A stretch of 59,532 nt of DNA, filler included. It is 9 parts of 9 records of this genome, joined end to end, with 100 filler letters (N's around TTAATTAATTAA, not from the genome) between each part and the next. Parts side by side here need not be neighbours in the genome. Positions count along the whole stretch, not along the records: positions 38,730 to 47,848 come from SRR31147125_21644; 8 more parts are not named here. The stretch is one strand, 5' to 3'. Both the position numbers and the translations under genes were made by a program. The notes beneath the pieces were generated by a model. It did not search any database and was not told where the DNA came from. It saw only the letters and a list, made by a program, of their open reading frames with translations. This document shows, piece by piece, positions 8,260-53,833 of the stretch; position 1 is the first letter of the stretch, and each line of letters opens with the position of its first letter.

Positions 8260-8359
8260 NNNNNNNNNNNNNNNNNNNNNNNNNNNNNNNNNNNNNNNNN
8301 NNNTTAATTAATTAANNNNNNNNNNNNNNNNNNNNNNNNNNNNNNNNNNNNNNNNNNNN
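8260..8359. other. Artificial contig spacer N44-TTAATTAATTAA-N44; identical copies at 13588-13687, 20449-20548, 26371-26470, 32411-32510, 38630-38729, 47849-47948, 53734-53833
   Basis: Eight identical 100-nt blocks with stops in all six frames. Base composition and gene content change abruptly across each. Confidence 0.99.
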
Positions 8360-11600: not shown

Positions 11601-13587
11601 GGAGATATCTTTGTTACAGAAACTAATAGAGTTGGGGATAGTACAAAATCGCTCTATTCAGCAAATGGAATGCTTCTACAAGAGATTGACGAGAAGGACT
11701 ATATTACCTCTTATATATATAATGAATACTCGCAGAAAATAGGTATGGTAGATGCAAGAGGAAATGATAGACATTACACATACTATTCTGATGGAAGTCT
11801 AGAAAAAATTGAGGAACCATCAATAGGTTCCGGCACAAAAGAAACCATATTTGGTTATACTGATGGTGACTTAACTTTAATTACTGATGATAAAGGGAAT
11901 CAAACTGTTTATAATTATTCAAATGATGGTAAACACAATCTGCTTAGTGAAACTAATGCAGAAGGTCATGTGACATCATACACTTACAATACTGACTCTC
12001 AAGTGGCTACTATGACAACGCCAATGGGAAGCATGTCAGAATACACTTATCTGAATGGAATGCTTGATGTACTTTCAGTAGATGGTGACGAAACGAGTTA
12101 TCAATATTATGATACGGGTCTTGTTTTAAAAGTGATTGATCCAAGGCTTAATGAGACCACATACACATATGATAATCGTGGAGCAGTTTTAACAGAGAAG
12201 AATGATTTGTTAGAGTCAATTACCAACACTTACTATAGTAATGGCTTGCTTCATACAATCACTGACAGAAACAATAATACTACAACCTATGATTATGATG
12301 GTAATGGGAATTTAACGAAGGTCAATAATAGTAAAAATGAAAATATCTTCAGTACTTATGATGGAGAAGATAGGTTACTAACTGTCAAGAATGAGAATTA
12401 TAACCCAATAGTTTACACATATGATGAACGGGGTCTAGTGGTTTCAAAACAAGATCAAAACGGTAATACCTTAGATTTTGAATATGATGAACTAGGTAAT
12501 TTAATTAAAGAGTTTGATGCATATGATAATTGGATTAAAACTTATGAATATGACGAGAGAAATAATGTTCATAAAATCAAGGATGCATATCAAGTAGAAA
12601 CTATTATGGAATATGATGATTTGGATTTGATGACTTCAATGACAGATCGTGAAAATAATATGTATCAGTATGCATATAATGATATTGGTGATTTAGAAAT
12701 AGTAACAGATCCAGCATTGAGTACGAGTTCCCAAATACTTGATATTCCAAACAAGACGTTTACTCAAACAGATAATAATGGCAATCAAATGATTCTTGAT
12801 TATAATGCCAAGGCACAAGTTGTTAAAAGAAAATTCACAACGACAGACTACATTCAATATGACTACAACTCAGTTGGTTTATTGTCTTCCATGACAAATG
12901 CAAGAAACAATCAATTTGCCTATGATTATGATTCTTTAAATAGACTTTCCACAGAACAACTAGGGTCTGAAATAACAACATATGGTTACGACGATAACAG
13001 TAATCTAGAGACAATTACAAATAGTCAGGGAACTATTACAAGGGTTTATGATGAACTAAATAGAGTTACGAGTTTTACAGATGTAAATAGCAATACAATT
13101 GGGTTCACCTATGATGATAGAGGCAACGTTGAGACTATAACCTATCCAGGAAACAAAGTAGTCACATACACTTATGATCAAGGGAACCGATTAACATCAG
13201 TAAAAGATTGGAACAATGACACTACATCGTATGAGTATTATGACACTAATCAATTAAAGAAAATCACTAGACCTAATGGTACGGCTGTAACTTACACTTA
13301 TGACCTTAATGGCTATTTGGAGACTCAAGTGGATGAAGATGTTGGTGGAACAGATATTTACAATGTTTCTTTATCTCAAAATTATGAAGGCCATGTAGAA
13401 TCAGAGACGTATGCAGATTATACAACAACAAATACCCTTGATGTTTTATATCAGTTAGATCAATCTGTTGAGAAAGACAGTCAGCAAGTAACACTTAATG
13501 ATTTTGATTATGCATATGATGATGGTGGCAATGTTGAAAGTATCGTAGAAAACACTCAAAGCAACTTGATAACATATACCTCAGACA
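8649..13587 (+). CDS. Secreted SBBP beta-propeller repeat plus DUF6531/RHS (YD-repeat) protein, 3'-truncated
   Basis: Signal peptide. N-terminal domain ending PLIIDP. Repeats of D..GNIYVTG.T....FPTT.GAYD....G..D.F. GAIPLTF...GYLGNGWQHNY, then many T.Y.YD..G.L repeats. RBS AAGGAGG. Confidence 0.9.
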
Positions 13588-13689
13588 NNNNNNNNNNNNN
13601 NNNNNNNNNNNNNNNNNNNNNNNNNNNNNNNTTAATTAATTAANNNNNNNNNNNNNNNNNNNNNNNNNNNNNNNNNNNNNNNNNNNNTT

Positions 13690-20448: not shown

Positions 20449-20548
20449 NNNNNNNNNNNNNNNNNNNNNNNNNNNNNNNNNNNNNNNNNNNNTTAATTAA
20501 TTAANNNNNNNNNNNNNNNNNNNNNNNNNNNNNNNNNNNNNNNNNNNN

Positions 20549-26370: not shown

Positions 26371-26470
26371 NNNNNNNNNNNNNNNNNNNNNNNNNNNNNN
26401 NNNNNNNNNNNNNNTTAATTAATTAANNNNNNNNNNNNNNNNNNNNNNNNNNNNNNNNNNNNNNNNNNNN

Positions 26471-32353: not shown

Positions 32354-32625
32354 AAACTAATAACAACCTAAAACAGAATAAAATCATAAAACAAACTGAG
32401 ACTGCGCCTANNNNNNNNNNNNNNNNNNNNNNNNNNNNNNNNNNNNNNNNNNNNTTAATTAATTAANNNNNNNNNNNNNNNNNNNNNNNNNNNNNNNNNN
32501 NNNNNNNNNNAAAAAGTAATGGAATAATTTATACCTTATGTTCTTTATATACACTAGGAGTCATGTGGATTTTTTAGCAGAAATGCATATTGTTATTTTA
32601 TTCCAGGTTTTATATGGAGGCAATT

Positions 32626-38593: not shown

Positions 38594-38786
38594 TCGAGTG
38601 TGGTAAAATTGATTATAAATAAAAAACCCNNNNNNNNNNNNNNNNNNNNNNNNNNNNNNNNNNNNNNNNNNNNTTAATTAATTAANNNNNNNNNNNNNNN
38701 NNNNNNNNNNNNNNNNNNNNNNNNNNNNNGACACCTTAAACTTGAAGCAACAGTAGTTATGACTCTCAAGTTTGGGTAATCTCGGG

Positions 38787-39956
38787 TCAAAAAAAGTATT
38801 TACACATTTTGCCCTCATAATTCTCGACGGCCGCGTATCCTTCGTCAACGGATTTCAAATAATCCGGCGTTACGGGGATTTTCCCGTGTCCTCCGGGAAG
38901 ATCGATCACATAATGGGGAATGGCCATTCCTGAAATGTGTCCCCGCATGGCTTTGATGATTTCAAGCCCCTTCGCCAGAGGCAGCCGAAAATGTGCGGTC
39001 CCTGTGACGGCGTCGGGGTGGTGCAGATAGTAAGGCCGAATCCGGATTCGCAGCAACCCCCGCATCAATTGTGTCATCACCTCCGGTGTGTCGTTGATTC
39101 CCCTTAACAGCACACTCTGGCATCCCAGCGGGATCCCCGCGTCTGCAAGCCTTGCACAAGCGCTTGCGGCATCATCCGTGAGCTCCATGGGATGATTGAA
39201 GTGGGTGTTGATATAAATGGGGTGATACTGCTTTAGCACCGAGACCAAATTCTCCGTAATTCGTGAAGGAAGGGTACAAATCGCCCGAGTATGGATCCGG
39301 AGGGTCTGAACATGATCAATGGCCCGGATTCGGGTTAAAATTCGGTCAATCATTTCCGTATCGAGAAGCAAAGGATCCCCTCCGGACAAAATGACGTCAA
39401 ATATCTCTTTATGCTCAGAGATATATGTGATTCCCTTTTCAATGATTTCCGGTAGCTTCGAATGGATGTATGACTTTGGCTCGGCTTCTTTAGATGATGT
39501 GAAAAAAAGGGTCGTTTCCATTCCCACTTTACGCTTTCGCATACAGTGTCGGCAATAGACCGCACATCGGTTGGAGACCAGAAAAATAACACGATCGGGA
39601 TAGCGATGAATAATGGACGGCACCGGAGACTGCGGCTCTTCACAAAGCGGATCCGGCACATTGACATCATCGTCGTCATCATGACGCTCTTCAGCATCCG
39701 GAATAGCCTGTTTCCAGATGGGATCTCCAATGGATTGAATCAATCCGATATAATACGGCGAGATCTGCATGGGGTATTTCTTCGTCGTACGTTGGATGGT
39801 ATTCAATAACTTCTCGGTCGGCTTTGCCGCCACTTTGGACGCACATGAGTCCGGTACAAGTATCCCTTTGTTTTGAAGATAAGTGATCAGTTCAGAAGGC
39901 GTTTTAATGCTCTTCTGAAGTTGCTCTTGCCAGGACATCGTGTCAAGGGGATTCAT
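38787..39956 (-). CDS. KamA family radical SAM protein (lysine 2,3-aminomutase-like; start uncertain)
   Basis: HRYPDRV, CAVYCRHCMRKR, ILSGGDPL, HFNHP.E, QSVLLRGIND, RPYYL, RGHISG.A.P.YVIDLPGG.GK.P. Confidence 0.92.
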   Translation of the reverse strand: MNPLDTMSWQEQLQKSIKTPSELITYLQNKGILVPDSCASKVAAKPTEKLLNTIQRTTKKYPMQISPYYIGLIQSIGDPIWKQAIPDAEERHDDDDDVNVPDPLCEEPQSPVPSIIHRYPDRVIFLVSNRCAVYCRHCMRKRKVGMETTLFFTSSKEAEPKSYIHSKLPEIIEKGITYISEHKEIFDVILSGGDPLLLDTEMIDRILTRIRAIDHVQTLRIHTRAICTLPSRITENLVSVLKQYHPIYINTHFNHPMELTDDAASACARLADAGIPLGCQSVLLRGINDTPEVMTQLMRGLLRIRIRPYYLHHPDAVTGTAHFRLPLAKGLEIIKAMRGHISGMAIPHYVIDLPGGHGKIPVTPDYLKSVDEGYAAVENYEGKMCKYFF

Positions 39957-40272
39957 GATGATGCTATTGCGCTCCATTGAAAATTGATCTGGTTCTTCCA
40001 CGGTTTACAGGGGCTCCTTAACCTATTTATCGGCGAAAGCCAAGGGCAATTTAGCTTGAGCACCCTGCTTGAATGTTCCAGATTCAGCTTTACAATTTTC
40101 TCTGATATTGATAATTTACTTCGCTTTGAATTTGATTCAATCTCTGTTTGGGGGGATCGAAATAAAGGGCTTGTCGTCATACCGGAAGAGTGGGTAACGG
40201 CTAGAGTGCTTTTAATTTTTTCCGCGGCTGTCGGTTTGACCGGGATGTCGTATTTTTTGAGGGAGATCATCA

Positions 40273-41640
40273 TTGGACTGGATTAGTCTATTAAAATCCA
40301 CCATACGTCTGGGGCATGTGTATGAGCTTGCCAGAACGCCGGGATCGGAGAGCACCTCCGTGGGCGAGGAACTACGGCTTGCAAACGCCAGCGGCCTCTT
40401 TTACATGGCCACCTGTCGCCTTCTGGAATACCTTCAAAAACGGGACATGGAAACCCCCATGGGGTTTCACTCCATCACGCCGTTTCACGATGAGTTGATC
40501 AAGGAGTTTCCCCGATTTTCCCTGGCAGATGTCAAATTTCTGGTCAATTTCCTGGCAACAGAGATCGAACTCAAGTTTCCGGGTGATTCCCGTGCAGTCA
40601 AAGCGGAAACGCCGCTTTTGGAAAAGACCCGGGCCGGGTATCGGGTCCGGCTGTCGGCCAACGGTCGAACTGTGGTCAACCTTTCCTATAATATTGAAGA
40701 GATTCTGTATGCCGAACAGAGCGCCAGGAAGCTGATTCGAGCCATAGAAATTTCCGATTTCAAAGGATTCGAGGCGCTTTCCGAAAAGCTGGTGCATGAG
40801 CTATTCACAAAATCCTACGAGATTCGAATTCTGATGGAGACCGCCGGACGGGAGCATCTGCGCCGGGAATATGAAAAGAATCACGAGTTTTACAACGAAA
40901 CCTTGGAGAAGGTTCGGCTCACCATCCAGGAACTCCATGACACCCTCAGGGAGGAAAAAACCATCCGGAAGATCGAAACCTTTATGGAGGAGAACGAGTC
41001 CGACAGCTATCTTGTCTACTCCCTCAATGCCAAGCTGAGTCGAATCAACGAAGCCTTGCTTGGGTTTCAGACCAACCTTTCGGAATTGCTTAAATCCCTG
41101 CTGCTTCATACTGAGGAGTTTGTCTCCAGCGTGAACTTCATAGGACTTGCCTCCCGGATTGTTCAAAGGGGAATCTCCGATGCAAAGATCGCATCGATTT
41201 TGGATCTCAATGGGATCTGGCGCCCCACCAACGCCGTTGCCAACCCAACGGATATCTATAAACCCATCGAGCTTCCTTCGCGAACATCGGATGAAGGCTC
41301 CCTCACCTTTGATATGCAGGAAGGGGAGGTGGTGGTGACACGCCTCAATCGGTTCCTCAACGAAAATAGAGAAATGATCGTGGAGCGACTGGACAAAGAA
41401 AAACAGATCCCTCTGTCGGAGATCATGCAGGATGACAGCTTTGCGGTGGACGACCTGGAGGAGCTCACGGCCCTGGTGGGGCTCTTTATCAACCCTCAGC
41501 CCTTGGATATTGCCATGGTCATCACCATCGACTCCCAAAAGCTCTCAACGTTCAACTCCGGTCAATGGCATGTCCGGTTCAATGATCTGGTGCTCCAGCG
41601 GGCACCGGAACAGATGCCGCTATTCAATGAAGAAAAATAA
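40273..41640 (+). CDS. Hypothetical protein; candidate kleisin (MukF/MksF/JetA-like)
   Basis: 455 aa with an N-terminal segment ending in a wing-like YRVRLSANG, a long helical middle and a short C-terminal domain. First gene of the SMC operon. Assignment is positional and structural inference. Confidence 0.55.
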   Translation: MDWISLLKSTIRLGHVYELARTPGSESTSVGEELRLANASGLFYMATCRLLEYLQKRDMETPMGFHSITPFHDELIKEFPRFSLADVKFLVNFLATEIELKFPGDSRAVKAETPLLEKTRAGYRVRLSANGRTVVNLSYNIEEILYAEQSARKLIRAIEISDFKGFEALSEKLVHELFTKSYEIRILMETAGREHLRREYEKNHEFYNETLEKVRLTIQELHDTLREEKTIRKIETFMEENESDSYLVYSLNAKLSRINEALLGFQTNLSELLKSLLLHTEEFVSSVNFIGLASRIVQRGISDAKIASILDLNGIWRPTNAVANPTDIYKPIELPSRTSDEGSLTFDMQEGEVVVTRLNRFLNENREMIVERLDKEKQIPLSEIMQDDSFAVDDLEELTALVGLFINPQPLDIAMVITIDSQKLSTFNSGQWHVRFNDLVLQRAPEQMPLFNEEK

Positions 41641-41701
41641 AATTTTTATGATTTGTTGTGGCAAAAGGGTTTGCCATGACCGTTATATGTAAGGATACTA
41701 T

Positions 41702-42826
41702 TTGGTGATGTTTGAAGATCCCCAGATTCTCGGTAAATTGTATGGATACCTGATCACCCACCGGATTTTAAGAACCCGAGTGGGCGAGAATGAAAAATTT
41801 TACCCTGAAGAGAAAGAGCTTGCCCAGGCGTATAAATCCCTGGACAAGCACTCCAAAATTGCGTTTGAAGAGTTTTTGACCGGCTCCGGCTTCAAGCTGA
41901 TCCGGTATGATGCCTTTTCATATCCCGGACTTCCCCAGGGAAGCACTTGCTATGTACTCATCCGAAACAGCATGGAGCATGTTCCCCAATGGCTGAAACC
42001 GTCCAACATCTACGACACGGTCATTGCCAGAAAGGGCCATAAAAGCAATACTCAGCGGGTGTTGCGTCTCTGGTTTTTTATCATCTGGCTCAACATGCTG
42101 GCCCTTCTTTACAAAGGGAATCGTCCCCTTTCCGCCGTGAGTGAAGCCGGTAAGATGAGCTTTACCGACGATCTTCTGATCAAGCAGATCACCGATTTCA
42201 TCGAGCTTGAAATCCGCCAGAAGAGTGATGCAGATGCCTACGATCAGTTCATCCGGGAAGTGCTGCTGGCAGACAATCCAAGGGATTTGAGACGACGGGT
42301 CACAGGGTTTCTGGAGTTCATGATTCGGATTTCCTACTTGAGTCGCTACACCTTTGAAGGGCAGATTGTCTATACCCAAACTTTGGTGATGGCATCGGAA
42401 GTGGCATCCAATTACTCGGATTGCTTTGCCTATCTGGTGAACGAATATGACGAAGAGGTCATGCCGCCACCGGAAGAGGGGAGCGAGGTGGATAACGATT
42501 CGGATGCCGCCGATCCGGACACCTCCCAAATCAAGCAAATACTAAAGGAGCGGTACTTTGACGGGTATACCCCGGATAGTGAAAGTGATCGAAATTCAGC
42601 CCCCCTTGATTCCGTGTCAGAAGATGGTGGGGATATTTCTACAACCGAATCCGGATCCCAAGGCCGGAATCCTCAAGATAATGAAATAGGGATGAGCAAT
42701 CAAGGGAAAGGGACAACAGGTCAAGAAAAATCAGAAGAGAAAGCTGAAAAAAGCATCCAGCAATCCCTTTTTTCAGATGCGGACAATGCAGGGACGGGGG
42801 GCAGACAGTTCCGAGAAGTCAGATAG
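41702..42826 (+). CDS. Hypothetical protein; candidate KITE subunit (MukE/MksE/JetB-like) with acidic disordered tail
   Basis: About 250-aa folded part containing a hydrophobic helix (WFFIIWLNMLALLY), plus about 120 aa of low-complexity tail. Lies between the kleisin-like and SMC-like genes. Confidence 0.5.
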   Translation: MVMFEDPQILGKLYGYLITHRILRTRVGENEKFYPEEKELAQAYKSLDKHSKIAFEEFLTGSGFKLIRYDAFSYPGLPQGSTCYVLIRNSMEHVPQWLKPSNIYDTVIARKGHKSNTQRVLRLWFFIIWLNMLALLYKGNRPLSAVSEAGKMSFTDDLLIKQITDFIELEIRQKSDADAYDQFIREVLLADNPRDLRRRVTGFLEFMIRISYLSRYTFEGQIVYTQTLVMASEVASNYSDCFAYLVNEYDEEVMPPPEEGSEVDNDSDAADPDTSQIKQILKERYFDGYTPDSESDRNSAPLDSVSEDGGDISTTESGSQGRNPQDNEIGMSNQGKGTTGQEKSEEKAEKSIQQSLFSDADNAGTGGRQFREVR

Positions 42827-42911
42827 AGACGTCAATTTGAGCCGTGCCGATCGTTCAGACAATGGTGACAGCGCGGCTGAGAAAGATGGAAAAGGGGAGG
42901 CGTTGTAAGTC

Positions 42912-45900
42912 ATGTCGTTGATCAATCGAATCGAGCTCAGTAACTTTCTGGTGGGAACCTCCAAAACCGCCAATTATCGGCATGCCGTGTTTGACTTTGA
43001 AGGAAAATCCACTGCAGTGGTCATGGGAAACGGCGGGGGAAAGACCACCATCAACAATGCCCTCATCGGCATGATGTCCAGAAATACCTCCATGATCGGG
43101 AAGACGCGAGCGCTGATGGCCATTCCCGGCCCCGGATCGGTCTATTCCCATGTTCGCATCGAGTTATTAAAGCCCGACGACGAGAGCGGCAATCAGAAAG
43201 CTCTTCCCGGAATGACATCCATGCTTACCGGAGAGACCTGGGTGTTCGGCATCTGCGGGTATGCCGGTGATAACGGTATGCTCTACTACTACTATTATCC
43301 CGGTGTATTGGAAGATACTGCTGTGGTCAAAGGGGCATTGACGGGAAGCGGAAACGGGAAAAGTGCCCTTGCCGACAAAAATAACGAGACCGGCACAAGT
43401 GAGAGGGATGGGATCCCTTCGGCCATGACCGGCGCAAAGCCGGGTAGGGCGATCACGCTTATCAGTAACGCCGGATTCCGGGAGAAGATCAAAGCGATCC
43501 CAAAAGCCAGAATCGGACGCCCCATCCCACGGGACGAGTGGCTCCAGGCCATGCACGAGCACATCTCTCCCCAGCAGGTGGAGCAGCACCGCCATTTTCA
43601 TTCCGCAGGTGGGGGGGACAAATCCGCAGACCTTTACAAAACCAGCCGGGTGCCCCATGAGGCATTCCATCAAACCTTTTTTTACGAGCATATCGCTCCC
43701 CAGCTCACCATGGGGTCGGCCCTGGATTTGCGGGAAGCGACCCACATCGGCGGAGATGACTTTGGTCACGGCGACTACTTTCTGGATGAGAAGATTCTGG
43801 ATATCTCCCTCAGTATCATCAACACCCAGATCCAAGCTCAAAATAAGAAAACGGAACTGAACAAGCAGGAAAACGCCATCGACCTTCTCAACACCCTGGC
43901 ACGGGTGGTGGAAGATATCAACGGATCCCTTGATTCCAGGGAAGAGATGCAGCAGGCCATTGAATCCACTGCCGCGCTCATGAAATATCTGGTGATTGAC
44001 CATCCTCTGCCGGGACTTCCCGCCATGGTGGAATCCGGAGTGGAGATGGTGGACGCTCTGGTCGAGGAAATTGTGATCGTTCCCAACATGAAGCCGGTCT
44101 TCATGATCCGGGACAAAGGCCTTGCCGTTCTCACCAACCAGGTGGTGAAACGGATTAACGAGCATGCCCAGCGGTCCGGTATTCAAGGCGCTCAGCCCAC
44201 CCAGATGTTGACGCTCATCACCGACATGGACGGAATCAAAGAGGTAAAGCGGGGCAAGAATAAAAAATATCCAGGTAAGCTCTACTCTCTGGACAATGGC
44301 TTATCCCTTCTGGATCGCGCCTCCATGAAGTTTCTCAGCGGACACGAGGATGAGTCTGAAGAGTTCCGGGAGTCGTTGAAAAACGCCCTTTCCAGGGCCT
44401 TTGACCATTTTGAATCCCGAATGGACACCAGTCCTTTGCGAAAATCCCTGAAACGGATCGGCCGTCAGCTCAGCCAAGTCTCCGTCTCCCTTGAGCACCT
44501 TGAAGGGGAAAAGCGCAGGGACGAAGCCAGAAAGATGGATATCGAGAGCAATCTGGCCACCTTCCGATCGGATCAGCGATGTTTCCAGGAGATGGAAGAC
44601 TCCAATCTGTTCACCCCGGTGGAGCTGGAGCATCCCGGTTCCTGCAAAGGCAATCTGAAAAAAGATCAGGAAACCCTGCAGAAGGAGTACTCCGACTGCG
44701 TCAGCCGGGAAGCCATGCACCGGGCCGTGTTTGAAAAATATACCCGCTTTAAAGAGGCGTCTCCCCATGCAGCGCCGGTGGATGCCCTGACGCGTATTGA
44801 AAAGGAGGAAGAGACCCTCAAAGCGACAAAAGAGCGTCTAAAAGAGCAACTTATCGCGGTTCGCCAAAAGATGGGCGACACCCAAAAGAGCATCACCTCT
44901 CTCCATGAGCGTATTGACTCGGACAGAAAAGCGCTGGACCGGCTGGAGCCGCAATATCGGATTCACCAAAAGTTCCAGGAAGAGAGACCCGGAGAAAAGC
45001 CGGAGGAGATCCTGGAATCCATCATGGCTGAGGAAAAGGCGCTTCTATTTGATATGGAGGATTGCAAAAAATCGCTTAAAATCCTCAAGTTTAAGCGGAT
45101 TGCCCTGGAGAAAAACATCAAGAAGCAGACCCGGGAGTATGATGCCGTCCACCGGAAGCATCAATTCATGGCTGATTTCCATTCCGCCTATGAAGAGATG
45201 AGGGCCGTTTTTCCGGATGAAGAAATAGCCGGTATGGAGGATCGGGTCCGGGGGGAGCGGGCTGCCCTTGAAAGCAGGCTGAAGTCCATCGCCAACGAGA
45301 TCGGCAGGGTGGAAAAACGGGTGGCACAGGAAATTCGATTTCGGGATGAGGTCTCACCATTGCCGCCCCAGGAGTGGATGGAGTCCATTCAAAATGAGAG
45401 GGAAACCCTCTACGGCCATCGAAGCAGGCTCACCCGGCGCCTGGAATCCCTGAAGACGGAACTGGGCATCTTGAAAGATCGCAACGTGGCTCCGGGCGAG
45501 GTGTACCGCGATGCATTCGAGCGGGTTCCCAACCATATGAAGTGCACGTCTCTTTATCTTTTTCTCACCGGCCTCTTTGAGTCGGAAATGGGTAAAAAAG
45601 GGGATACCGCTCAAACTGCGGCTCTCCAAAAAGAGGAAGCCAATCCGTATCAGGACGACCAATCAGAAAACAGACAACCGTGTGATGAGGTCTCAACTGC
45701 TGACAGATCAAGCGATGGGAGTGATACCGTTGCATTGGAACGCTATCTATCGCTTTTCTCTTCATTTCTATTTGCTCCGGTGGTGACCACCGCCGAGGAT
45801 GCCGCCACATTGCTGACGGCGTTCGGCAGCACGGACGATGCCGAAGAGGCATTGCCGGTGCCGGTTTTTCTGGAAAATGAGCTGAGCGCCTTTATTGAAT

Positions 45901-47848
45901 CCCATCCGGTGGATCAGCTGACGGTTTGCGATGACACCCAGGTGATCTCCCACCTGTTTGCGGGCCGGAAAAATGAGTTGATCGAGTGTATTCTGGATCC
46001 CCAGGCCATCGAGCGTCAGCGGGAAGCCATTCGGGCCAAATCGGCGGTGGCTGAAGAAGAGCTGAAGCGAATTCAAACCCGGCTCAAAGAAATTGCGCCG
46101 GACAGCGCGCCCATGACCCTGGCCCTTCGCGCCGTTGAATCCATCGAGACCAAGGCGGCAGAGCGCTTGGAAGCCGCCAAAATAGAGAAAACAGAGCGGA
46201 TGGAGGCGCAGGCCGATTTTCTGGAGAAATATCCGGAATCCCGCTACACCCTGTTCCGGGAGGCCGAGCAGTTCGTCAAAAAAGGGGGAATTGAAACCTG
46301 GACCTCCCTTCAAGCTTCCGTCACCACCCTTGAAACAACCCTGGAAAATCTTGGAAAAGAAGAGCGTTCTCTGGAGGATCAAACCGCTAAAACCGAAGAG
46401 GAACATAAAAAGGCAAAACGTCTCTTTTACGACCATAAGAACCGTCATGAGCTGCAAAAGTCCGAATTGATCCGCCTCATCGATTTTTACAAATCCGGTG
46501 ATCTCGATATCTACGAAAAACGTGTCGAAACCGTTCGCTTCAACACCATGGAGCTGGAAGAGTTTGAAGCGGAGCAGGATCGGGACACCGAGGCCGAGGC
46601 AAGGCTCACCCGTGAAAAAGAGCTGGCCGATGAGCGCTATACCGAAAGCATGACAACCAATGTTCCCCAAAAGCAGGCGCTCAAAGAGATGATCCTATTT
46701 GTGGAGAGCGACGATTTCGGTTTCATGAAGGATGCGGCATCCAGGATCGAAAAGATCCGGGAGCGAATCGACATCATCAATCAAAAGCTCAATTTCAGGA
46801 TGGATGAGGCCCAGCGGTTTGTGGATCACCTGGCCATGAGCGAGTCGGGAGAGCGGGAGCGGATCGACGAGATCAACCGTCATCTTCAAGAGACCTTGGC
46901 GCGCATGGAAGCGCTCAGCGAGAAAAAGCGGAAACTGACGGATCAGCAGACCGATTTCAGTATTGCCTCTCCCCAGTATGATCGGATTTTGTGCCAGATC
47001 GTATCCCACTTCATGACCCCAAATATTCAGTACAAGAAAAAACTCCCCAAAGGATTTGACTTTCCCGGTCCGGTGGCGGCAAAAATCAATCGGCTCTACT
47101 CGTTGGGGAACGGTTCCGGGGCAAAGGAGCTGCCCCGGCAGGACAGTGTAGAAAATACAAATGGTGTCGGCGGTATCGATGGCGCGGATGGTACAACCGG
47201 AGAATCAGGTGCACTCGGCGCACATAACGGTACCGGAAGCGGAAACATCGAATCCATGCACGCTCCCCTTAAAGAGAAAACGTACATCAGTTATACTGCC
47301 GGCGGCACCGTCACCCAGGATATTGTGTCGGATGTTGATGCCTTGAACGACTACTTCGACAATGCCGGGATCAGTTCCTTTGCCGACAAGATCAAGGCCA
47401 TGACCAAAAAATTCAATCCCATCGAAGACTCTATCGGGAGACGTTGGAAAAGGGATTGGAGGATCCCGACATTCCGTTTAAACATTATGAAAAAGAGCAT
47501 CTGCAGGAAACCTTGTCCCGCCCTGAATTTCTGTTGGAGATCCGTAAAACCTACATGGAGATCTACGAACGGGAAAAGGCAAACTACGAACGGGTGGCTG
47601 AAACCGAAGAGGCCCTTCGAACCGGACTTGCCAAAGATTTGACCCGTCTCACCGACAAGGCCCATGACAACTTCATTATCTTAAAAAAGATCCTCAAAAA
47701 CTATCGAAACGCCAGCGGTGCCTCCTTTGACGTGAAAGTGGCCATTGCCGGGCGGGATAATATTCGGGATGCCATCGAAGGGCTCATCGGCACCATCAAG
47801 ACCAAGCACGAGCTCTATATCGAAAAGGATCATGAGCTGATCGAAAAA
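42912..47848 (+). CDS. SMC-like ATPase (MukB/MksB/JetC-like), frameshift near 47426, 3'-truncated
   Basis: N-terminal INRIELSNF and Walker A GNGGGKTT. Very long coiled coils around a central globular segment (LFAPVV...PVPVF). Continues into ORF 47444 onward after adding one A. Walker B lies beyond the contig. Confidence 0.85.
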
Positions 47849-47948
47849 NNNNNNNNNNNNNNNNNNNNNNNNNNNNNNNNNNNNNNNNNNNNTTAATTAA
47901 TTAANNNNNNNNNNNNNNNNNNNNNNNNNNNNNNNNNNNNNNNNNNNN

Positions 47949-53733: not shown

Positions 53734-53833
53734 NNNNNNNNNNNNNNNNNNNNNNNNNNNNNNNNNNNNNNNNNNNNTTAATTAATTAANNNNNNNNNNN
53801 NNNNNNNNNNNNNNNNNNNNNNNNNNNNNNNNN

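Follow-up and report, generated by a model that had tools for sequence, protein, structure and literature searches.

The stretch of DNA analysed here (59,532 nucleotides including filler, from now on the window) carries on the contig SRR31147125_21644 a cassette of three co-oriented genes, which likely encodes a JetABC-type complex of a divergent Wadjet lineage. In the clade to which it belongs, here called Desulfamplus-type, the nuclease gene jetD would have been lost and genes 1–3 retained by purifying selection. The complex would be formed by a candidate kleisin (gene 1), a KITE (kleisin-interacting tandem winged-helix element) subunit (gene 2) and an ATPase resembling the structural maintenance of chromosomes (SMC) proteins (gene 3). 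In most of the lineage the gene for the Toprim nuclease JetD follows the ATPase gene, and there the cassette may act as mobile defence cargo. Because JetD is lost in the Desulfamplus-type clade while genes 1–3 are under purifying selection, an SMC-kleisin-KITE ring would there most likely still assemble and bind or entrap DNA, with whatever motor activity it may possess, and could not cut it. The features of the cassette are as follows (positions in the window; ORF, open reading frame; aa, amino acids; ABC, ATP-binding cassette).

40273-41640, plus strand: gene 1, ORF of 455 aa
41702-42826, plus strand: gene 2, ORF of 374 aa
41702-42439, plus strand: gene 2 core, residues 1-246, predicted KITE subunit with two winged-helix domains
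42440-42826, plus strand: gene 2 tail, residues 247-374, predicted disordered acidic low-complexity extension of the Desulfamplus-type clade
42912-47405, plus strand: gene 3, first 1498 codons, SMC-like ATPase of the ABC class with N-terminal head, long helical arms and conserved middle block
47406-47411, plus strand: A-run short of one base in the assembly, apparent frameshift
47408-47848, plus strand: gene 3 continuation, 147 codons in shifted frame, open up to the contig end
47849-47948, no strand: artificial spacer after the contig end, N44-TTAATTAATTAA-N44

Related loci were collected from one genome per species with a single peptide pattern, and the 31 loci obtained are therefore a lower bound. 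Their hosts are Desulfamplus and other Thermodesulfobacteriota, a metagenome-assembled genome (MAG) of the Sulfurimonadaceae (Campylobacterota), and alpha-, beta- and gamma-proteobacteria. Clustering and profile searches show a constant order of genes 1, 2 and 3 across the loci, with gene 1 always in first position (26 of 31 loci; in two of the five exceptions a contig end cuts the locus). In 25 of the 31 loci gene 3 is directly followed by a fourth gene of ~360–390 aa in the same orientation, which is a JetD homologue. Pfam JetD_C scored above its cut-off in four of five tested proteins and PADLOC JetD1 in five of five (best E 8.4e-18), and it is the JetD1 and not the JetD2 models of PADLOC which give the best scores. 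The Toprim glutamate (ENP) and the DxD motif are invariant in this protein, and its sole match among PDB sequences is MksG (8b7f, E 0.0094). The presence of JetD directly behind gene 3 in so many loci makes the family a deeply divergent, unlabelled Wadjet-type lineage. The original prediction, made from the sequence of the window, had compared the kleisin-KITE-SMC-like order and the sizes of the genes with MukF-MukE-MukB and JetA-JetB-JetC; the reading as an SMC-type ATPase with two small partners is supported, and so, by the JetD homologue downstream, is the suggested Wadjet kinship. JetD is missing from L001–L003, L009, L012 and L024.

Genes 1–3 themselves are unlike known families, as had been claimed. 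Pfam, NCBIfam and PADLOC scans gave no match for any of the three, except for PADLOC JetC3 in coiled coil (E 1e-4); for gene 1 there was none at all. Scanned singly against Pfam, none of 95 relatives of gene 1 and none of 26 relatives of gene 2 was recognised, and SMC_N weakly matched 8 of 19 relatives of gene 3 (best E 0.0081). The models for JetA to JetC (DUF3375, DUF4194/MksE, AAA_29, SbcC_Walker_B and those of PADLOC) miss genes 1–3 and recognise canonical loci. For comparison, canonical type I JetABCD loci were taken from the class of genome G004, in which JetD_C occurs in 24 of 121 genomes; locus L052 was confirmed by Pfam (DUF3375, DUF4194/MksE, AAA_29 with SbcC_Walker_B, and DUF3322 with JetD_C). 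With a threshold of E<=1e-3, a search of 1.84 billion cluster representatives (50% identity) found 187 that belong to the gene 1 family. Of nine members read, four carry a public name, in each case 'hypothetical' or 'uncharacterized'. Defence finders which need models of JetA, JetB and JetC would miss the whole lineage.

A tree of gene 3 (36 sequences; quick IQ-TREE run with LG+G4 and midpoint rooting only) groups the window with P0001–P0003 and three Desulfamplus loci (7 rows, support 100). Sister to this clade are loci from Desulfocapsaceae and from Sulfurimonadaceae that carry JetD (11 rows, support 100). Since JetD is present in every other major branch, its loss in the Desulfamplus-type clade is the economical reading. 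Gene 1 of the window is 91% identical to that of the JetD-less locus L001. The gene following gene 3 is convergent and unrelated in L001, L002 and L003, and genome-wide JetD was found in none of the three genomes of the clade, neither by Pfam JetD_C nor by the family's own JetD profile, which did find it in three of three control genomes. The original prediction had placed any effector past the contig end. In view of the three genomes this is unlikely, and a fourth gene of the kind expected is probably absent. In a comparison of the window with L001, the ratio of nonsynonymous to synonymous substitution rates (dN/dS) is 0.04 for gene 1, 0.21 for gene 2 and 0.16 for gene 3, at dS values of 1.1–1.3. 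If the loss of JetD predates the split of the window and L001, as the tree suggests, these low ratios mean that genes 1–3 were kept by selection.

As deposited, gene 3 of the window closes at 47642 (1576 aa), with ~67 out-of-frame codons before the stop. Of the three co-oriented genes that had been described, those of 455 and 374 aa and a third one starting at 42912 are present, but the printed third ORF is not open over more than 1640 codons. Compared with L001, L002 and L003 the A-run at 47406–47411 is one base short. The true reading resumes at 47408 and consists of 1498 + 147 codons, so that ~1646 residues are visible; the statement that the ATPase, though truncated, exceeds MukB (1486 aa in E. 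coli) is therefore correct. A Logan contig from run X1 (9842 bases, depth ~102) shows one difference over 46600–47848, an extra A behind 47405, by which the frame is restored; it extends 713 bases past 47848. For this reason we take the frameshift to be a slip of the assembly or else a minor variant. The assembly is independent, but the biology is not, since run X1 is probably the sample from which the window came. Gene 3 stops at 47848 because the contig (38730–47848) ends there, and not because of the end of the window.

One may ask whether the cassette became functionless after the loss of JetD and is now eroding. Besides JetD itself, gene 1 is gone from L003 and its genome and from L012, and genes 1 and 2 are gone from L009. 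In Desulfamplus magnetovallimortis (L002) gene 3 is split into ORFs of 703 and 1126 aa at an A7 run (about 12095–12112), a site of the same type as the break in the deposited window sequence. The cassette is also rare in the phylum sample described below, and the dS values above 1 are near saturation. All these points weigh against a maintained complex. Decay is nevertheless improbable, given the dN/dS of 0.04–0.21, a Walker A motif which is intact in the window, and the signature, Walker B aspartate and H-loop which are intact in members of the clade. The frame break of the window is absent from the Logan contig, and an uninterrupted gene 3 of 1808–1905 aa exists in L001 and L003 (both genome MAGs), P0001 and P0002. 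The break in L002 could be due to a sequencing error or to slippage-prone tracts in gene 3. As a separate observation, L003 holds at the place of gene 1 (660–1300) ~520 non-coding bases with short palindromic and direct repeats; the region adjoins a reversed ATPase gene, and no remnant of gene 1 was seen in it.

Among the subunits, gene 2 was assigned by its predicted structure. An AlphaFold2 model based on a 26-sequence alignment has a confident core at residues 4–246 (mean pLDDT, the predicted local distance difference test, of 71–95 in 10-residue blocks), built of two helix-strand units of the winged-helix type, whereas residues 247–374 are mostly disordered (mostly pLDDT <50). In a Foldseek comparison of this model with the PDB no match reached E<=1e-3. 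Ranks 1–24 are all MukE, JetB, Nse1/Nse3 or MAGE (best E 3.1e-3), with subunit names taken from entry titles and chain lengths, and every match spanning both domains is a KITE protein, by a modest margin. The best whole-length matches are JetB (those of E. coli and P. aeruginosa among the top), Nse1/3 and MukE; nvJetB matches weakly (E 0.17). Furthermore, the Atlas model of the orthologue P0030 neighbours DUF4194/MksE clusters (template modelling scores of 0.61 and 0.58, target-normalised). In these models gene 2 is shown to fold as a tandem winged-helix KITE protein and to share this feature with JetB, and the KITE assignment of the original prediction stands. Residues 251–374 contain 23% D+E and 47% S/T/G/N/Q/P, and other members of the gene 2 family are shorter (~262–308 aa) than the 374 aa of the window. 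Judged by the model, the long form in the Desulfamplus-type clade is an acidic low-complexity tail and not a second KITE lobe. The orthologues favour the ATG at 41708 over 41702 as start codon.

Gene 3 begins MSLINRIELSNF, and the SMC head start that had been noticed includes a Walker A motif, GNGGGKTT, at residues 39–46 (43026–43049). A GGGDKSA block is found at 43608–43628. The middle of the protein has a conserved, non-repetitive block from FSSFLFAPV (45756–45782) to ECILDP (45984–46001). With the full-length P0001 (1808 aa) the window copy shares 69% identity, and full-length relatives range from 1503 to 1905 aa. The continuation behind the frameshift aligns to P0001 immediately ahead of its C-terminal head. 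A complete C-terminal head, with the signature SxG[QE] and the H-loop histidine, is seen in full-length relatives, in agreement with the predicted C-terminal lobe; the window copy ends earlier. Walker A, the signature serine and glycine, and the H-loop histidine are conserved in the family. Compared with type I JetC by hhalign, for which percentages are probabilities throughout, the N-terminal head reached 93% (E 3.4e-7, 64 columns) and the C-terminal head 39% (E 3e-4), the latter with SxGQK aligned on SGGQKE and IDGLFS on IDEAFG (IDGLFSxLSD on IDEAFGRGSDES). The whole profile of gene 3 reached 72% with JetC, over the Walker A region only; in such whole-profile comparisons with type I nothing else of genes 1–3 was matched, as expected from the claim that they belong to no described Wadjet type. 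An hhalign match of 58% between gene 3 and MukB was rejected, as it consisted of coiled coil and did not hold in a hinge-only test.

For gene 1, the C-terminus (residues 330–455) aligns with the C-terminal region of JetA (hhalign 69.7%, E 4e-5, 40 columns), and no match to JetA was obtained for its N-terminal and middle parts. In profile searches against PDB sequences, residues 172–290 gave weak helical-bundle-like matches and residues 348–398 a marginal match to a winged helix-turn-helix regulator, NmtR (E 1.1). Language-model features of the gene 1 orthologue in L002 neighbour the clusters of TIGR02677 (0.93), which we take to be type II JetA, and of MukF (0.92). Together with the first position in the cassette, these observations are a lead that gene 1 may be the kleisin subunit of JetA/MukF type.

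It is also conceivable that no SMC-kleisin complex exists, and that gene 3 is an ABC ATPase of the Rad50/SbcC kind, encoded next to two unrelated winged-helix DNA binders, with JetD recruited independently. The similarity between gene 3 and JetC is limited to the ATPase motifs. Head-only profiles of gene 3 found marginal generic ABC P-loops and Rad50 in the PDB, all at E 0.2–0.8, and the full-length profiles of genes 1, 2 and 3 found only helical or coiled-coil noise among all PDB sequences. For the hinge region hhalign gave 3.5% with JetC and <1% with the MukB hinge; the hinge-like segment of the original prediction persists as the conserved middle block, with no significant match to either hinge. 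The coiled-coil arms were judged by a composition map alone, which is too crude to use. The window copy lacks the ~165 C-terminal residues that in relatives are the seat of signature, Walker B and H-loop. The whole profile of gene 1 reached 0.4% with JetA (3.4% with a 95-sequence profile) and 0.2% with E. coli MukF, and a kleisin architecture of terminal winged helices and a helical bundle is putative for it. The whole profile of gene 2 stayed at 6% with JetB (16.6% for its C-terminal half) and at 1.7% with MukE. Against a Rad50-like explanation stand the whole-length structural matches of gene 2, which are all KITE proteins of SMC complexes, the gene-for-gene agreement with JetABCD in order and sizes, and the JetA alignment and cluster neighbours of gene 1. 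We regard this explanation as very unlikely. A divergent SMC system of Wadjet/Mks kinship is supported for gene 2, the family context and the ATPase head, with gene 1 as a candidate.

How such a complex would use ATP is less straightforward. Walker B reads hhhhD-G-[LIM]-F-S in every gene 3 relative that has the C-terminal head, the Asp-Gly pair occurring in 34 of 34, 28 of 28 (D and G invariant) and 40 of 40 such sequences (41 examined) in three overlapping sets. Canonical JetC has an invariant D1051-E1052, and the profile alignment puts the glycine of the family on that glutamate. None of these relatives has the Asp-Glu of JetC; the window's own Walker B lies past the contig end. Asp-Gly also holds in the JetD-bearing relatives. 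Mutating the Walker B glutamate is a standard way of stalling SMC motors. As Walker A, signature and H-loop are conserved, the capacity for ATP binding and head engagement would be kept, with the usual catalytic base missing. From the Asp-Gly pair one would expect either that ATP is bound and the heads engage while hydrolysis is slow, or that a residue recruited from elsewhere is catalytic. The nearly invariant aspartate of the GGGDKSA block lies where the order of motifs would put the Q-loop, and as a guess from sequence it might be a stand-in catalytic residue. Motor activity in its usual form is doubtful, the missing glutamate speaking against a normal loop-extrusion motor, and for the same reason loop extrusion by the family is uncertain. 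A family with Asp-Gly and, in most members, a linked nuclease raises the question whether cleavage-coupled DNA sensing needs fast hydrolysis at all; alternatively, the catalytic residue may have moved.

A complete four-gene Wadjet-type nuclease system with JetD just past the contig end, restricting small circular plasmids by extrusion and cleavage, would suit the 25 JetD-bearing loci and a contig which ends inside gene 3 with the downstream DNA unseen, yet it is very improbable given the JetD-less genomes of the clade with their positive control, the close match of gene 1 to L001 and the negative result of the JetD profile across the window's eight remaining contigs (50 kb of the genome only).

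For a JetABC-type complex that has lost its nuclease, we infer one of four roles. A nuclease-free organiser of the host chromosome or of a large replicon, a domestication resembling that of MukBEF/MksBEF, is our tentative preference, at somewhat less than even chances. A nuclease-independent brake on foreign circular DNA is possible and somewhat unlikely, a course towards decay is unlikely, and cooperation with an unlinked nuclease is quite improbable. The condensins of the hosts bear on the first of these roles. Searches for Smc, ScpA and ScpB found none of them in three Desulfamplus genomes (G001–G003) or in Desulfopila (G004), and all three were found in the control, Idiomarina G127; MksE was not found in G001 and G002. 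With nine first-look candidates scored per genome, Smc (TIGR02168) was present in 53 of 61 genomes in the order of G001 and in none of 61 in its GTDB family (G001, G191–G248), where MksE occurred in 16 of 61. The whole GTDB family thus appears to be without Smc-ScpAB, and no replacement was identified. This absence leaves room for a chromosomal role in Desulfamplus; it is circumstantial and does not show one. That the system replaced Smc throughout the host family does not hold as a general rule, since only 2 of 61 genomes carry the system.

Several observations argue against a housekeeping role. The gene 1 family occurs in just those 2 of 61 genomes of the Smc-less GTDB family, and the gene 2 family in 1 of 301 genomes in a sample of the phylum of G001, namely the centre genome itself. 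G162 carries Smc plus the system, and the flanks of the cassette differ between L001, L002 and L003. Concerning the searches, Pfam PF06470 (SMC hinge) was discarded because it missed the Smc of G127 that TIGR02168 had found, AAA_29 is too unspecific for genome searches, and a type I JetC profile matched in none of four genomes in a search that had no control. An ORF of 1831 aa in G001 with weak Smc coiled-coil matches was rejected as an SMC protein, no head motifs being found in it. It lies in an operon (L067 1476–11385, G001:C2) which encodes a multi-glycosyltransferase of 1235 aa, coiled-coil proteins of 237 and 1831 aa and then two ABC exporters.

The genomic surroundings of the relatives are of a mobile or defence-type kind. 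Close to the cassette, 10 of 31 loci encode a member of a protein cluster of ~270–300 aa; two members were scanned and both are WYL regulators. Genes for TnsB-like (Mu-transposase C-terminal domain), TniB and TniQ proteins lie near the cassette in five loci (representatives scanned). These Tn7-like or Tn5053-like transposition genes are at the following positions.

L011 44-1599
L015 7155-11144
L021 1725-4806
L025 3760-7770
L029 14461-18283

In L025 and L029 the Tn7-like genes adjoin the cassette of four genes, in L011, L015 and L021 they are a few kb away; near them the cassette looks as if it were transposon cargo. A pair of genes for a Metallophos phosphoesterase (~420 aa) and an AAA_27/SMC_N ATPase (~1160 aa) was seen in three loci.

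L008 3035-7788
L010 3027-7788
L029 19137-23152

In L008 and L010 this pair immediately precedes the cassette on its upstream side, in L029 it stands a few kb past the Tn7-like genes; it is SbcCD-like and may be another defence module. The four-gene system is also present on the 305-kb conjugative plasmid pMSMB43 of Burkholderia humptydooensis (L068, NZ_CP013381.1 159272–178612), in the order WYL, three hypothetical genes, 'Wadjet ... JetD domain-containing protein' and ISL3 transposase, with JetD the only one of the four labelled by RefSeq. Circles larger than roughly 100 kb are reported to be spared by type I Wadjet (10.1101/2022.10.04.510915), and a Wadjet-type system on a plasmid of 305 kb is notable beside this limit. 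The family was not found in a phage collection; among plasmids, gene 1 of Comamonas matched none and gene 1 of Idiomarina matched one plasmid (three records). Such surroundings are typical of mobile defence cargo, here of the Wadjet kind and with subunits A, B and C that have diverged too far for labelling.

In the window, the contig of the system (38730–47848; 9,119 bases; GC content, guanine plus cytosine, 0.51) holds four genes and is one of nine contigs. These are separated by artificial spacers of the form N44-TTAATTAATTAA-N44 at the following positions.

8260-8359
13588-13687
20449-20548
26371-26470
32411-32510
38630-38729
47849-47948
53734-53833

The GC content of the nine contigs ranges from 0.33 to 0.58. 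For a single genome bin this spread is wide, and one may ask whether the contigs are of mixed origin. Two further features lie upstream of gene 1.

38787-40001, minus strand: KamA-family radical S-adenosylmethionine (SAM) aminomutase, a neighbour outside the system, divergent and upstream of gene 1
40069-40096, plus strand: sigma-70-like promoter match (TTGAAT-16-TACAAT) between kamA and gene 1, from a consensus scan only

The divergent kamA had been named correctly in the original prediction. Its product matches TIGR00238 with 280.7 bits (cut-off 199.2) and scores under the equivalog cut-offs of the lysine, glutamate and arginine 2,3-aminomutases and of EpmB. A KamA-family gene adjoins the cassette only in the window and in L001 (62% identity). 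The putative promoter is graded as weak, because five promoter-like sites were counted in the region against 2.3 expected.

On a wider scale, the JetD-less clade under purifying selection, beside its JetD-bearing sisters, is an intermediate of the kind predicted by an origin of MukBEF/MksBEF from Wadjet through domestication after loss of the nuclease, a proposal made in a recent preprint (10.1101/2025.03.10.642339). Desulfamplus magnetovallimortis, one of the carriers, is an isolate according to its record, which could make this idea testable. The clade may thus show how DNA-clamping defence machines turn to other uses after the nuclease is lost. A more far-reaching view, which we hold to be doubtful, is that of a fourth Wadjet lineage with a Glu to Gly exchange in Walker B and a different ATPase cycle, which in Desulfamplus, where Smc-ScpAB is not detectable, would recently have undergone a second, independent domestication as organiser of host DNA.

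Compared with described systems, type I Wadjet (JetABCD, MksBEFG, EptABCD) shares gene order and sizes with most relatives (~455, 265, 1530 and 370 aa). Common to both are also a JetD with intact Toprim glutamate and DxD, which is homologous in the relatives, a KITE gene 2, ATPase motifs that can be aligned to JetC and, in the relatives, mobile or defence-type contexts. They differ in the length of the ATPase (1500–1900 aa here, ~1125–1190 aa for JetC), in Walker B (Asp-Gly here versus Asp-Glu), and in the absence of JetD from the clade of the window. In the Wadjet type II of Neobacillus vireti (JetABCD-II), as described in the same preprint, the SMC subunit is long and the KITE gene is enlarged to 388 aa by a second KITE lobe (10.1101/2025.03.10.642339). 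The cassette likewise has a long ATPase and a large gene 2, and the features of the gene 1 orthologue lie near TIGR02677 as mentioned above, but the extra length of gene 2 would be a disordered acidic tail. A genome search with TIGR02677 had matches in 0 of 201 Pseudomonadota and in no control either, and is uninformative.

MukBEF/MksBEF resemble the cassette of the clade as a three-gene operon without a nuclease gene and with a candidate kleisin-KITE-SMC order and sizes. In contrast, genes 1–3 have no sequence-level match to MukF, MukE, MukB or MksE; the system is rare and patchy where theirs are lineage-wide, and its nearest relatives bear JetD. With Nse1-Nse3 of Smc5/6 gene 2 shares the fold only, at 10% identity; this argues for a KITE protein and says nothing on kinship with Smc5/6. 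From Smc-ScpAB the cassette is distinct, as had been stated before: the models of Smc (TIGR02168), ScpA and ScpB all miss genes 1–3. In the type II preprint the number of Wadjet types is given as three (10.1101/2025.03.10.642339). No name such as a fourth Wadjet type or 'type IV Wadjet' was found in the literature searched, which dealt with types I–III and did not cover preprint supplements; the three papers with the term 'Wadjet-like' treat other subjects, to judge by titles and the openings of abstracts. We file the cassette as an offshoot, without a nuclease and with a Walker B that lacks the glutamate, of a Wadjet lineage so far unlabelled, outside every described Wadjet type and outside MukBEF/MksBEF.

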